Positions 507 through 6,535 of a stretch of DNA of 64,000 bases are shown one piece after another. Under the pieces are notes generated by a model. That model worked only from the letters and a program-made list of their open reading frames with translations. It was not told where the DNA came from and ran no database searches. Position numbers and translations under genes: made by a program. Location of the stretch: contig OZ245006.1 of the NCBI GenBank assembly GCA_965223545.1, forward strand, positions 1,632,001-1,696,000. Direction: 5' to 3'. The first letter of the stretch is position 1. Every line of letters begins with the position of its first letter. Source of the stretch: Planctomycetota bacterium. GTDB lineage: Bacteria; Planctomycetota; UBA1135; UBA2386.

Positions 507-1205
507 TCAAGCCGGCCGCTCGCGGAAGTCCAACCGCCCCCGCGACCGCCGCCACCCGCCCTTCAGCAACCAGGTCCGCGCCCGCACCGTCGGCCGCGCC
601 ACCGGCTCCGACAGCTCCACCCCCTCGCGCCACCCGTCGAACCAGGGCCCGGACGAGTAGACGTCGATCGCCTGCCGCGGCCGCTGCCGATGGTGCCAAG
701 CATTCTGCAGCACATACACCAACGCCCGCCGCACCTCCGTCGGCGAGCGCAGCACCCGCTCGTGGAACCGCTCGGCAAACACCCGCCCCGAGCGCCCCCA
801 CAGCTTGTTCAACCCCCGCGCCATCCGCACCAACAACCCGGTCATCCCCCGCGTCAACGCCTCCCGATCCTTCGCCTCCACCAGAAGGTGCAAGTGATCG
901 CGCTGCACCGAGAACTCCACCAACCGAAACCCGAACCGCCCACACCCCGCCCGGATCCGCTCCACCAACATCCAGTACGTCCGCGCATTCCGTAAGCCCG
1001 GCAACCCCCGACACAACCGCACCGTCACGTGCAACGGATACCGCGCCACCAACGCCCCCCGCGCCAAGTGCGGCACCGTCTCATCACTCACCTTGGGCCG
1101 ACCAGCCCCCTCCCGAGCCCCACCCCACTGCCGAAACGGCAACTCACCCTGCACCACCCCACGGCGCCGTCCACCGCGACGCGGCCGAATCGTCTCGCTC
1201 GTCAT
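507..1205 (-). mobile_element. REP-associated tyrosine transposase (RAYT / Y1 HUH family)
   Basis: PLHVTVR, HUH motif QRDHLHLLVEA, RSGRVFAERFH, catalytic-helix YVLQN; start MTSETIR at 1205. Confidence 0.85.
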
Positions 1206-1274
1206 TTGAATTAGCGACCTTACTAAAAAAGGTGTGGGCATGCAAGAACACACAAGAAATCCACGGAGGGCGGT

Positions 1275-1499
1275 CGCCGAGGGTGACGGAGCGGAGGCGA
1301 GTGCGCACCGCTCCGCGACGAAACACGCACTCCTACGTGCAACTCTTGATTCCGCGATCTTCAGTCCAAGCGGTACGAACACGCATCACGACCGGGACCG
1401 CCGCCCGCAGCTCTCGATCCAGAGGCCGAGGGAGCACGCAGGCGCGCCCCCAGAGCTCCCACCACCTCCAGCTCCAGAGCTGAAGGCTCGCCTCACCAC
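1275..1499. repeat. Partial first unit of ~354-bp tandem hairpin repeat (interrupted by intron; 85-bp internal deletion)
   Basis: Aligns to units at 3533-4345; joins 3533 seamlessly when 1500-3532 is removed. Confidence 0.9.
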
Positions 1500-3532
1500 G
1501 CCGAGTAGCCGCGGGGGGTTGCCCCCCCGCAGCTCTCACAGAACCGGACTTGTGGGTCACACATCCGGCTCTTCAGGACGGTATCCCCCAAAGGGGCCGC
1601 CAGTCGTAGCGGCGCTCGTCCCAGAGCTTGGAAAGCGACACCAGCCGCTCAGCAAACCACTGATTGGGATAAGCGCGTTTGATCGCTCCCGAGTTGCTCT
1701 GCCACCACGTGCCACGCCGGCCAAACGCGGTGCGTGCAGCCGACTGCCAGCTGCACCCACGGGCGACAAGGTCTCGGAAGAGGTATCGCGGTCTCTTCTT
1801 CTGCCGAATGATGATCGCCCGCAGGCGTCGTCGAATATGGCCATCGAGATTCCGCAAGGTCCGCCACGCGGCCTTCGTGATCAGCTTGAAGTAGCCGATC
1901 CAACCACGGAGGTAACGGTTCAGTCGTTCGATGCACCAGGACAGCCGACCACCCCAGGACCGCGGCGTAAGCTCACGGATTCGGGCGTCGATGCGATCCA
2001 GAGTGCGACGGGACAACTGCACCGTCAGCCAGCCCTTTCGAGTTGCGCCTACGCGAAACCCGAGGAAGTGCCGGCGATGGGCCAGGTCGACGGAACTCTT
2101 CGCTTCGTTCACTTTCAGTCGCACGCGACGTTCGATGAACCTGCGAATCGAAGCCATGACCCGGTGTCCTGAGCGCTCGCTACCGACGTAGATATTGCAG
2201 TCGTCGGCGTAGCGCACAAAACGCAACCCGCGTCGTTCCAACTCCCAGTCCAGTTCGTCCAGGACGATGTTGGACAGCAGAGGTGATAGCGGGCCGCCCT
2301 GGGGCGTTCCTTCTTCCGTGATGACGCGGGTGCCATCTGGAAGAACCACGTTCGCTTTCAGCATCAGGCGGATGATCCGCAGCACCCGACGGTCCTTCAC
2401 CTTCTGAGCCAGCCGGTCCAGGAGGCGTTGGTGATGGACACGGTCGAAGAACTTCTCCAAATCGATGTCCACCGTGTACCGCCGACCCTGCTTCACGTAA
2501 CCCGCTGCTTCGGCGATCGCTGTGTGGGCTCCCCGCCTCGGCCGGAAGCCGTGGCTGCTGTCGTGGAACGTCGGGTCGTAGATCGGCTCCAGAATCTGGC
2601 GCACGGCCTGTTGGACCCAGCGGTCGATCACGGTTGGAATCCCGAGACCCCGCTGCCCACCACTGGGCTTCGGGATCCACACCCGACGAATATCGCCGGG
2701 CGCGTAGGTCTCCATGAGCAGAGCATCGCGGAGTTTCGGGAGCAGGTGTTTCGCATGACGCTTGACCTCTGACACCGTCTGTCCGTCGACGCCCGGGGCG
2801 CCCTTCTTGCTTACGACATGTGCCAGTGCGCTTCGCAGGTTGCCCTGCTCCGCGACCAGCTCCAGCAGATGGCAGTAGCCGTCCGCTGGCGGCGGAGCCG
2901 ATTCCGATCGATGGCTGCAATCCGTCGTAGGCACCGACGTGGACTTCGTGGCAGATTCGTCTGCCCTTCCGGCCACGCCGTCCCCTTGCGGGCTCTCGGC
3001 GAAAGCGAACTGCAGTTGCCGTGGTTTCGGCTTTCTCATCCTGTCACCCCCTTCGCTCCACCGGCATTACCCGGCTTCATCACTACTACGGGGTGATCCG
3101 ACTTCTCTGCATGCCTTGGTGGGTCGTCGTTGCCTCCTCCCCACCTACCGCTCGAAGCGGACACACAGAGATCTCCCTGGGTAAGAACGCAGAGTTTCGC
3201 GCCGCCGCCGGTTCCAGTACTCCGAGGTCGCGACTGGATATCGGGCGTCACGTTGGATGGCACGCTGACCCAGACCTCGAGAGCCTTACGGAACTTCGCT
3301 TTCGCTCGGTGCTGCGCTGCGTCTAGGGCTTCCATCCCACACGACCTCGCGGGAACAGCACGGCACGGTGTCCGTCCTGTTCTGGCATCCCGGATCAACA
3401 CCGCGCACCGCCCTCTCGGACGGCACACGGCTCCCCTTTCTGCCTCGTGCAGCTGCCTTCGACTCATGGTTTCCTCCAGTACGGATCCATAAAGAACTTT
3501 CATCTTCAACTCTGCGCCCATGCCAGGCGCAA
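1500..3532 (-). mobile_element. Group II intron, IIC-like, full length (~2033 nt)
   Basis: 5' end TTGCGCCTGGCATGGGCGC, CTTACCCAGGGAGATCT segment near 3170-3185, domain V GAGCCGGATG...AGTCCGGTTC (1541-1571), domain VI hairpin ending CTACTCGGC; boundaries set by restoring the repeat unit. Confidence 0.9.
1573..3039 (-). CDS. ltrA: Group II intron reverse transcriptase/maturase (no endonuclease domain)
   Basis: KGAPGVDG, IPKPSGGQRGLGIP, GTPQGGPLSPLL, RYADD, maturase X domain (LNRYLRGWIGYF). Confidence 0.95.
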   Translation of the reverse strand: MRKPKPRQLQFAFAESPQGDGVAGRADESATKSTSVPTTDCSHRSESAPPPADGYCHLLELVAEQGNLRSALAHVVSKKGAPGVDGQTVSEVKRHAKHLLPKLRDALLMETYAPGDIRRVWIPKPSGGQRGLGIPTVIDRWVQQAVRQILEPIYDPTFHDSSHGFRPRRGAHTAIAEAAGYVKQGRRYTVDIDLEKFFDRVHHQRLLDRLAQKVKDRRVLRIIRLMLKANVVLPDGTRVITEEGTPQGGPLSPLLSNIVLDELDWELERRGLRFVRYADDCNIYVGSERSGHRVMASIRRFIERRVRLKVNEAKSSVDLAHRRHFLGFRVGATRKGWLTVQLSRRTLDRIDARIRELTPRSWGGRLSWCIERLNRYLRGWIGYFKLITKAAWRTLRNLDGHIRRRLRAIIIRQKKRPRYLFRDLVARGCSWQSAARTAFGRRGTWWQSNSGAIKRAYPNQWFAERLVSLSKLWDERRYDWRPLWGIPS

Positions 3533-4345
3533 CATCACCGACGACAGCGGTCCAAGACGAGGCACGGGGTGCGACCGCCGCCGACGGTGACGGAGCTGAG
3601 GCGAGTGCGCAACACTCCGCGACGAAACGCGCACTCCTACGCGCGCTCTTGATTCCGTGACCTTCAGTCCAACCGGTACGACCACGCATCACGACGGGGA
3701 CCCGCCGCCCGCAGCTCCGTCACCATCGGCGTCGGTCGCACCCTGTGCCTCGTCTTGGACCGGCGCTGATGGTGATGGAGCTGCGGGCGGCCCCGCTAGC
3801 TCTCGATCCAGAGGCCGAGGGAGCGCGCAGCGCCCCCAGAGCTCCCACCACCTCCAGCTCCAGAGCTGAAGGCTCGCCGCAGCACCATCACCGACGACAG
3901 CGGTCCAAGACGAGGCACGGGGTGCGACCGCCGCCGACGGTGACGGAGCTGAGGCGAGTGCGCAACACTCCGCGACGAAACGCGCACTCCTACGCGCGCT
4001 CTTGATTCCGTGACCTTCAGTCCAACCGGTACGACCACGCATCACGACCGGGACCGCCGCCCGCAGCTCCGTCACCATCGGCGTCGGTCGCACCCTGTGC
4101 CTCGTCTTGGACCAGCGCTGATGGTGATGGAGCTGCGGGCGGCCCCGCTAGCTCTCGATCCAGAGGCCGAGGGAGCACGCAGGCGCGCCCCCAGAGCTCC
4201 TACCACCTCCAGCTCCAGAGCTGAAGGCTCGCCGCAGCACCCTCACCGACGACAGCGGTCCAAGACGAGGCACGGGGTGCGACCGCCGCCGACGGTGACG
4301 GAGCTGAGGCGAGTGCGCACCACTCCGCGACGACACGCGCACGCC
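3533..4345. repeat. Tandem array of ~354-bp units (starts 3533, 3886, 4241 partial) with 50-bp inverted arms; REPIN/BIME-like
   Basis: Near-identical units; arms 3549-3598 and 3712-3761 complementary at 47/50. Confidence 0.92.
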
Positions 4346-5821: not shown

Positions 5822-6535
5822 TCAGACCTTGACCGACTTGCGCAGCACGACGTAGGCCGAGCGGTGGCCGGGGATCGCGCCCTTGATGAAGACGAGATTG
5901 CGCTCCTCGTCGACCTTGACCACTTCGAGGTTCTGCACGGTGCGCTGCTCGTCGCCGTAGTGACCCGCCATGTGCTTGCCCTTGGGCACGCCGTGGTGGG
6001 TCGAGTAGGTGCGGCCGATGCCACCAGCGCGCCGGTGGTTCTTGCTGTTGCCGTGGGTCGTCGCCTGCCGGCCGAACCCCCACCGCTTGATGGTGCCCGC
6101 CCAACCGCGACCCTTGGTCGTGCCGATCACGTCGACGCGCGCGACGTCCTTCAGCACATCGACCTTGATCTCGTCACCCGCCTTGCACTCGGGCATGCCC
6201 TCGTAGCGCAGCTCGCGAACGAATGCCTTGGCGCCACTGCCGGCCTTGGCGGCGTGGCCGCGCTCGGCCTTGCTGGCGGCCTTGTCGGTCTTGTCGTCGA
6301 AGCCGAGCTGCACCGCGTAGTAGCCGTCGGTCCGCCGCGGGCGGTCGTGCTTGCCGCGGCGCTTGCCCAGGTTGGTGGCCGCACCGCGCTGATCCTCCGG
6401 CAACTCGGCCAAGTCGTTGCACTTGACCTGCAGCACCTTGCACGGCCCGGCCTCCACCACCGTCACCGGCACGCAGGTGCCGTCCGGCTGGAAGATCTGC
6501 GTCATGCCGAGCTTCTTACCGAGGATTCCGATCAT
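5822..6535 (-). CDS. rplC: 50S ribosomal protein L3 (orphan, divergent)
   Basis: [52 protein letters not shown]. Confidence 0.93.

Follow-up and report, generated by a model that had tools for sequence, protein, structure and literature searches.

A class-C-like group II intron in the hairpin arrays of a multicopy RAYT-related transposase family of a planctomycete

Bacterial group II introns have been assigned three target specificities, namely homing sites, terminators and attC sites (Zimmerly and Semper 2015, PMC4424553). The terminator-inserting introns of class C, or IIC, among them B.h.I1, GsI-IIC and E.r.I1, do without an endonuclease, have a short domain V, an exon-binding site 1 (EBS1) of 3-4 bp and an AGGAA motif, and have a stem-loop 5' of their insertion site (PMC1702495, PMC4424553); IIC introns are described as being located after a terminator or some other inverted repeat (Toor 2006, PMC1702495). 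The IIC-attC introns, such as S.ma.I2, use one strand only of an imperfect hairpin that is owned by another mobile system based on single-stranded DNA (ssDNA) (Leon 2010, PMC3001079). Here we describe an intron that has these features in common with both groups. It lies in a 64,000-nucleotide stretch, the window, which covers contig positions 1632001-1696000 of an 8.1-Mb Planctomycetota genome with 69.7% GC; coordinates without a contig name are window positions. The minus strand of the window holds a gene for a Y1/HUH tyrosine transposase (507-1205), a hairpin array (about 1206-4345) and, within the array, the intron (1500-3532). Judging from the sequences, we consider it likely that this class-C-like intron of a sister clade underwent a recent burst, in which it retrohomed independently many times into the hairpins of a multicopy RAYT-related transposase.

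On the transposase side, the closest described systems are the REPtrons, in which a RAYT (TnpA-REP) gene is found with arrays of repetitive extragenic palindromes (REPs) and bacterial interspersed mosaic elements (BIMEs) (PMC3333891, PMC6006769, PMC5581495). The present gene shares with them the HUH motif, the catalytic tyrosine, a match to the structure 4ER8, tandem pairs of inverted hairpins beside the gene and CT in the module borders. However, RAYTs are mostly single copy (Bertels 2017, PMC5581495), and class 2 enzymes combine a Y-x3-NP motif with a low number of poorly conserved copies (Quentin 2018, PMC6006769), whereas the present family has 12 intact copies that are 92-97% identical (with 0-70 matches in relatives), carries Y-x3-N without the proline, scores below the NCBIfam cut-off and has repeats that are not dispersed. 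TIRtrons, with their TIRYT genes (Di Nocera 2013, PMC3733652), resemble the homologous loci of three relatives (G017, G028 and G036), in which inverted repeats with no relation to GTAG REPs stand on both sides of the gene; compared with the published TIRYTs by description, the genome of the window differs in having repeats only 5' of the gene. Finally, insertion sequences (IS) such as IS1397, IS621, ISPpu9 and ISRm22 likewise insert into palindromic repeats, which give them a target that is both safe and repeated (Tobes and Pareja 2006, PMC1525189), but these are DNA transposons, whereas the element in the window is a retroelement that reads its target by RNA-DNA pairing.

Intron copies and the H hairpins

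The genome of the window (G000, with chromosome contig C1) contains 14 full copies of the intron with 0-13 differences in 2034 nt, and 13 of them lie in the 3' arm of hairpins of a single family, which we name H. A profile search of the chromosome with its introns removed gave 26 strong H copies, of which 13 are filled, in addition to three weak relatives, all empty. Twenty-three of the strong copies (11 filled) belong to arrays that adjoin the 5' end at 10 of the 13 Y1 loci, and lie within 1.1 kb of the Y1 gene. Of the introns, 11/14 are in such arrays, which abut the Y1 gene at its 5' end, and 8/13 Y1 loci have at least one intron within 135-407 nt. The remaining three H copies, two of them filled, occupy the left end of an element that we take, from our own reading of its protein, to be of the ISL3 type. 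Thus the preliminary description was right to propose that the intron targets these hairpins, and the insertion is not a one-off event.

The copies of the ISL3-type element lie near G000:C1 2608355, 3675035 and 5061510, each with an H-like hairpin inside its left end. No difference separates the two introns found there. Close to the site, three changes set both hosts apart from the empty copy, although the latter has three others in common with one of the hosts. Probably this pair goes back to one insertion that was then carried along.

Both ends of the intron, 1500 and 3532, are fixed by the end-to-end alignment of all 14 genomic copies over 2033-2034 nt. Excision of this segment leaves flanks that agree at the junction with the intact unit at 3885, with no target duplication and no possible shift of the boundary, and an exact intron-free copy of the rejoined site is present elsewhere in the genome. 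In addition, a contig from a different study crosses the identical 5' junction without differences (run X5, record 14). An intron-free joint of 1499 to 3533 was absent from the matches listed for three contig sets, in which contigs tend to be interrupted at repeats. The domains, the rejoined flanks and the empty copy together bear out the earlier view of a complete intron, encoding a reverse transcriptase (RT), that interrupts a hairpin unit beside a Y1/HUH gene without duplicating its target.

The insertion sites obey a simple set of rules. All 13 H insertions share a local hairpin of about 60 nt, and a stem of 14-20 pairs lies directly 5' of the site in 13/14 copies. The last four exon bases are GATG in nine copies and GGTG in five, followed by G (12 copies) or A (2 copies); three of the four GGTG sites within H offer no GATG alternative. 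The site GGTGATG^GTG that had been put forward for checking is present in only 5/14 copies; the rule itself is G(A/G)TG^(G/A). Because the motif recurs every 3 nt in the hairpin arm, insertions occur in three registers, 14, 17 or 20 nt from the loop, and two subtypes of the hairpin are in use. All 13 H insertions are on the hairpin strand that folds more stably, by 3-9 kcal/mol, with G-T pairs where the other strand has C-A mismatches, even though the opposite strand has the motif too. No T-tract was found at any of the 14 sites. The sites are tandem non-coding arrays and an ISL3 end rather than cassette ends, as far as can be said from context, no attC model or integrase search having been run. 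The arrays are mosaics of shared modules that differ by gain or loss of H modules, whose borders share AGCTC, and this pattern is reminiscent of the CT cleavage and BIME amplification described for TnpA-REP (PMC8266576, PMC3333891). One array holds three introns in two orientations, and one identical intron haplotype occurs in both H subtypes and at an ectopic site.

The array of the window illustrates these features, with one of its five hairpins filled. In the direction of the minus strand, it begins at about 4345 with an intact, empty H hairpin (4217-4314, minus strand), followed by an inverted one (4056-4143, plus strand), a second intact copy (3863-3959, minus strand) and a second inverted copy with its target strand on plus (3704-3791), all empty; the units are spaced 353 and 355 nt apart, in keeping with the tandem units of about 354 bp reported before. 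The 5' exon of the intron is a local H hairpin of 19 pairs with a 20-nt loop region (3533-3592, minus strand), whose 3' arm ends in the intron-binding site 1 (IBS1) GATG (3533-3536). The 3' exon and a degenerate array unit make up the 5' flank of the Y1 gene (1206-1499, minus strand), in which the stretch at about 1476-1499 is the outer portion of the hairpin that the intron splits. It had been suggested that the 5' exon is a fold-back of about 245 nt. This structure is indeed the minimum-energy fold predicted for 3533-3790 (z -9.1) and the best predicted fold here, but it is not the recognised target, since a second, inverted H lies 5' of only 4/13 sites (judged by eye), whereas the local hairpin is present at 13/13.

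Target recognition

The terminal hairpin of domain I has a loop at intron positions 272-279 that contains CAUC (EBS1; 3256-3259, minus strand), with full pairing to GATG and wobble pairing to GGTG. This assignment was assessed by covariation among members of the clade whose 5' end is clear. From 27 aligned loci and the window intron, 23 introns were used, after dropping L200, L198 and L201 (repeats of L199), L252 (a repeat of L251) and L132 (which has no flank). EBS1 and target pair at 81/92 positions, against a mean of 43.6 and a maximum of 60 in 10,000 shuffles; position by position, pairing is present in 22, 23, 23 and 13 of the 23 introns. Since the four aligned bases covary with the target in this way, EBS1 comprises 3-4 bp, which is the IIC pattern (PMC1702495). 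The use of three registers in one hairpin speaks against a fixed IBS2. A motif AGGAA lies at the aligned place in domain I, the epsilon-prime region, to which it is assigned by position. Among the sister introns, L198-L201, which reside on Rhizobial and Novosphingobium plasmids, insert after GTAG within larger palindromes and have CUAC as EBS1.

A hairpin with the motif is probably not enough for the intron to land. The genome has 98,619 motif sites on both strands; outside H, 1,081 of these mark the end of a stem with at least 13 pairs, and none is filled. A further comparison is offered by a dispersed REP/REPIN family in G000 with 91 copies in 77 clusters. This family seems to be paired with two candidate class 2 Y1 enzymes (genes at G000:C1 1729907 and 3914571), which have long C-terminal tails and the Y-x3-NP motif, a pairing suggested by repeat fragments upstream of their genes. 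Its copies contain 67 GTGATG-purine sites, of which 27, at about 19 loci, sit where a stem of 10 or more pairs ends; no intron was found at these 27 sites, although intergenic doublets with perfect stems and GATG exist. The difference between H (13/26 filled) and REP (0/19) has a Fisher p value of 1.6e-4, or 3.4e-4 if the ISL3 pair is counted once, which is somewhat overstated given that the insertions are not fully independent. These comparisons point to a further rule for the choice of landing site, beyond hairpin and motif. They also speak against the idea that RAYT-propagated repeats serve as an expanding target pool, in that H has only 26 copies, 23 of them near Y1, whereas the dispersed family is without the intron.

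With the replication origin near 4.01 Mb, H copies on the lagging-strand template are filled in 9/13 cases and those on the other strand in 4/13, a trend that is compatible with ssDNA at the fork but no proof of it.

The intron and transposase families

The RT open reading frame (ORF; 1573-3039, minus strand; 488 amino acids with an intact YADD) scores 373 bits with TIGR04416 (cut-off 300); in Pfam it matches RVT_1 and GIIM only, and no endonuclease domain was found. Among solved RT structures, that of GsI-IIC is the nearest (E 2.8e-119). The intron RNA matches RF02001 at 3186-3356 and RF00029 at 1500-1573, the latter with 39.2 bits, slightly below the gathering score of 40. Domain V (1541-1571, minus strand; 31 nt) has the short distal stem of IIC introns with an AGC triad instead of CGC, and domain VI (1500-1540, minus strand) is predicted to fold with a bulged branch-point A at 1506, 7 nt from the end. 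In a tree of 32 rows and 399 columns, with reference rows labelled by context and triad and not drawn from an intron database, the RT groups with class C against the outgroups (100/100) and falls into a separate clade of 13 rows (SH-like approximate likelihood-ratio test 99.5, bootstrap 99), sister to a canonical class C (93.7/94) that includes both terminator-type and integron-type references; a quick tree of 73 rows gave the identical split. The intron is therefore a member of an AGC-triad sister clade of class C and is of neither the terminator nor the attC type, the two clades against which the preliminary description had asked it to be placed. Membership in the attC subclade was rejected by its position in the 32-row tree. 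Identity with the varieties g1-g4 of Toro 2013 was rejected on the basis of their description, these having been defined among class F and unclassified introns (PMC3552965).

The sister clade spans Alphaproteobacteria, Myxococcota, Actinomycetota and others, and has the AGC triad and a short domain V throughout. Its targets are GC-rich hairpins without T-tracts, many of them within larger palindromes, and in one case the target is a repeat that is matched 175 times in its genome, the control pattern being matched 4 times. Given that sister introns also use GC-rich hairpins, one of them a repeat, the targeting of hairpins and repeats is a trait of the lineage, while the link to H is shown for the window intron only. 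Compared with terminator-type IIC introns, the window intron thus differs in its AGC triad, its RT clade, its IBS1 inside the stem arm, its targets without T-tract (in which the reference L250 differs) and its ends; compared with IIC-attC introns, whose RTs at cassette ends belong to canonical class C with CGC triads, it uses a transposase-flanking hairpin and a different IBS1. The ends are non-canonical, UUGCG...GGC. Of 24 relatives with both ends located, 23 have G as the first and A as the penultimate base, and one, on a different branch, resembles the window intron with U first and G penultimate. The first and penultimate bases of an intron are in contact, which fits the joint change of the two. 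Two side observations concern related RTs: the sister-clade RT of L101 (G129:C229) carries one in-frame TAG, and G000 itself has a second, distant RT at C1:4530834-4531541 (37% identity over 238 amino acids).

The Y1 gene (507-1205, minus strand) encodes 232 amino acids with H104-L-H106 and Y164 and matches PF01797 with 25.8 bits (cut-off 23). The names given to its homologues are in keeping with a planctomycete as host. Together with one fragment, the 12 intact genes form 13 loci in the genome, with 18-55 differences in 699 nt. Variable codons number 75 with synonymous changes only and 28 with an amino acid change, an apparent sign of purifying selection. H106 and Y164 are invariant in 23 Y1 sequences, and the motif YVLQNA is of the form Y-x3-N, with proline in none of the 23 rows. 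The E. coli TnpA-REP structure 4ER8 is the sole match in the profile search of the PDB (E 0.0066) and the best fold match (E 6e-6), ahead of the IS200 enzymes, while a single-sequence search of the PDB was empty. The curated RAYT model NF047646 gives 35.4 bits against a cut-off of 80. The gene had been called a RAYT, and the fold supports the relationship; however, in view of its copy number, the missing proline and the clustering of H beside the gene, it is RAYT-related and not a canonical RAYT. An assignment to IS200/IS605 (Quentin subclass 1.1) was rejected as well, with Y-x3-N in place of Y-x3-Q, copies of 92-97% identity where near-identical ones would be expected, 19 bits with NF033573 (cut-off 55) and a homology that ends at the stop codon instead of extending to hairpins at both ends. 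Thus the family fits neither RAYT nor IS200.

Homologues of this Y1 family are present in 15 of 41 genomes searched, with 1-70 matches each, and relatives retain H-like hairpins beside it. In G017, G028 and G036 the inverted repeats around the gene form tandem runs, and G028 has 22 genes to 34 copies of the repeat. Tandem repeat units, some of the runs including a Y1 gene and others not, are found on G017:C1 and C34 and on G036:C26 and C299, where Y1 genes also stand in tandem 1.4-1.7 kb apart, suggesting local amplification by the Y1 family. The 13 Y1 loci of G000 show an extreme strand skew, with (G+T-C-A)/n of 0.27-0.34 against a background standard deviation of 0.09 per 200 nt, and at about six of them the neighbouring host gene becomes increasingly C/A-rich towards the array; this skew is missing from most homologues in other genomes. 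Apart from these systems, the window has at 5822-6535 (minus strand) a gene that, from reading of its sequence, we presume to be related to ribosomal protein L3, with an insertion and away from the usual operon.

Association of the intron with the transposase

Whether the intron, the array and the Y1 gene travel together, as the preliminary description had considered, can be judged from their divergence. Over eight loci, divergence amounts to 0.28% among the introns and to 4.3% among the Y1 genes, a fifteen-fold gap, and the two sets of distances are uncorrelated (Spearman -0.33, p 0.89 for a positive link). Five Y1 loci have no intron, three introns are far from any Y1 gene, and the introns next to Y1 genes use different hairpins, registers, positions and orientations. 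A single composite mobile unit of Y1 gene, array and intron would account for the 8/13 Y1 loci with a nearby intron, and the copies at C1:1357582 and 6127148, which share derived changes, do have Y1 genes among the closest pairs (18 differences); nevertheless, the idea is largely refuted by the above and we regard it as highly improbable, hitch-hiking being plausible only for the two copies inside the ISL3 element. A lineage-wide link to the transposase fares no better, in that none of 55 sister-intron loci, six of which came from a viral scan and entered only this count, has the Y1 family in the DNA available around it, many of these loci being short.

We propose instead that two separate mobile systems meet at this locus. 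A multicopy RAYT-related Y1/HUH gene would bear a BIME-like tandem hairpin array on its 5' side, which the Y1 enzyme may build itself, by analogy with the biochemistry of E. coli TnpA-REP. The endonuclease-less, class-C-like intron would have come later and retrohomed independently into the hairpins many times. Its ribonucleoprotein (RNP) would reverse-splice into ssDNA folded as an H hairpin, probably mostly at the replication fork, with EBS1 (CAUC) pairing to a GATG or GGTG that precedes a purine and stands in the 3' arm at a distance of 14, 17 or 20 nt from the loop. An extra feature of H, which might be its conserved upper stem and loop, its stem length with G-T wobbles or its accessibility, would let the intron skip other hairpins with the motif, and what the intron would gain is a harmless, repeated, non-coding target. 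What the sequences establish within this scheme is the number of copies, their sites, the strand rule, the pairing with EBS1 and the independence of insertions.

Several observations weigh against this scheme. The ectopic copy (G000:C1:2456636-2458668) lies antisense in the 3' end of an ORF that we take, from its translation, to be sulfatase-like, and has no long hairpin. Insertions into most of the non-H hairpins would be lost by selection, as these hairpins are within genes, a complication that the REP control alone avoids. With p 0.12 for 9/13 against 4/13 and p 0.18 for 10/14 copies, the bias towards one replication strand is weak. Some of the copies are not independent of one another, and introns could be spread from array to array by gene conversion. 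Lastly, no close relative (above 75% identity) with both flanks is at hand, so that the specialisation for H rests on a single intron: RT relatives of 65-89% from the protein search came without DNA context, and the genome, metagenome and class searches gave 73% at best (with one flank only), followed by 46-58%.

Some of these points would also suit an intron with no special preference, one that accepts any long hairpin with the 4-nt motif and is seen in H on account of purging elsewhere or of gene conversion from one early insertion. The ectopic copy, the many unrelated hairpins occupied by sister introns, the mosaic arrays with shared modules and the recurrence of identical intron haplotypes could be read in this way. 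However, three registers and two hairpin subtypes are impossible to obtain by conversion from one event, a single identical haplotype occurs in both subtypes and at the ectopic site, and no intron occupies any intergenic REP doublet that offers a perfect stem and GATG, which leaves this explanation unlikely. We are similarly doubtful about an active part of the Y1 enzyme, in which it would license insertion by binding or nicking its own hairpins, exposing the folded strand and leaving a 3'-OH primer for reverse transcription, with the intron parasitising the reaction. Such licensing would account for H being filled to 50% while the other REP family is at zero, for both orientations side by side in one array and for an unrelated intron in a repeat of the Y1 family in G028; HUH cleavage does yield a 3'-OH competent to prime DNA synthesis (PMC8266576), and the marked strand skew seen in the Y1 genes and in part of their flanks could point to an unusual turnover of the DNA there. 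On the other hand, the other REP family seemingly has candidate Y1 enzymes too and yet is unfilled, no sister-intron locus among the 55 lies beside this Y1 family, and the lagging-strand-template trend agrees with ordinary priming at the fork. If Y1 dependence did hold, at least two classes of group II intron would have converged on the Y1 family as a mobility helper, and a fourth targeting mode would stand besides homing sites, terminators and attC.

The case in G028, a genome of the same order and another family, deserves mention in its own right. The single group II intron found there (L230/L262, C1:610500-612600) has an RT that is only 35% identical and lies outside class C in the tree; from its motifs we take it to be class E-like. 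It also ends in GGC, and the repeat that it precisely splits lies upstream of a homologous Y1 gene, at a distance of 250 nt; 34 intact copies of this repeat lie beside the Y1 genes of the genome. By sequence this is a convergent case, an unrelated intron in the repeat of the same Y1 family, and it is one observation among five Y1-rich relatives tested for introns: those of G017 with located ends are not at Y1 repeats, and ends were not located for G022 and G016.

In the literature searched, which left most subscription journals and supplements outside its scope, we found no description of group II introns that target repeats of the REP/RAYT type, of class C introns with an AGC triad or of these intron ends; members of either family may be catalogued in intron database tables or in the supplements to Quentin 2018 and Di Nocera 2013. 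The genome provides a natural experiment. Of the 26 copies of one hairpin, 13 are filled and 13 empty, insertion occurs in three registers and keeps strictly to one strand, and a second repeat family, which has the same 4-nt motif and perfect stems and is unused, serves as an internal negative control. Which properties of a DNA hairpin are recognised by a class-C-like RNP in addition to the EBS1 pairing can therefore be put directly to the test. The genome also reveals a multicopy family of HUH transposases outside both RAYT and IS200, and an AGC-triad sister clade that is widespread and in which the 4-nt EBS1 varies freely along with the target, which is relevant to ssDNA-directed retargeting.

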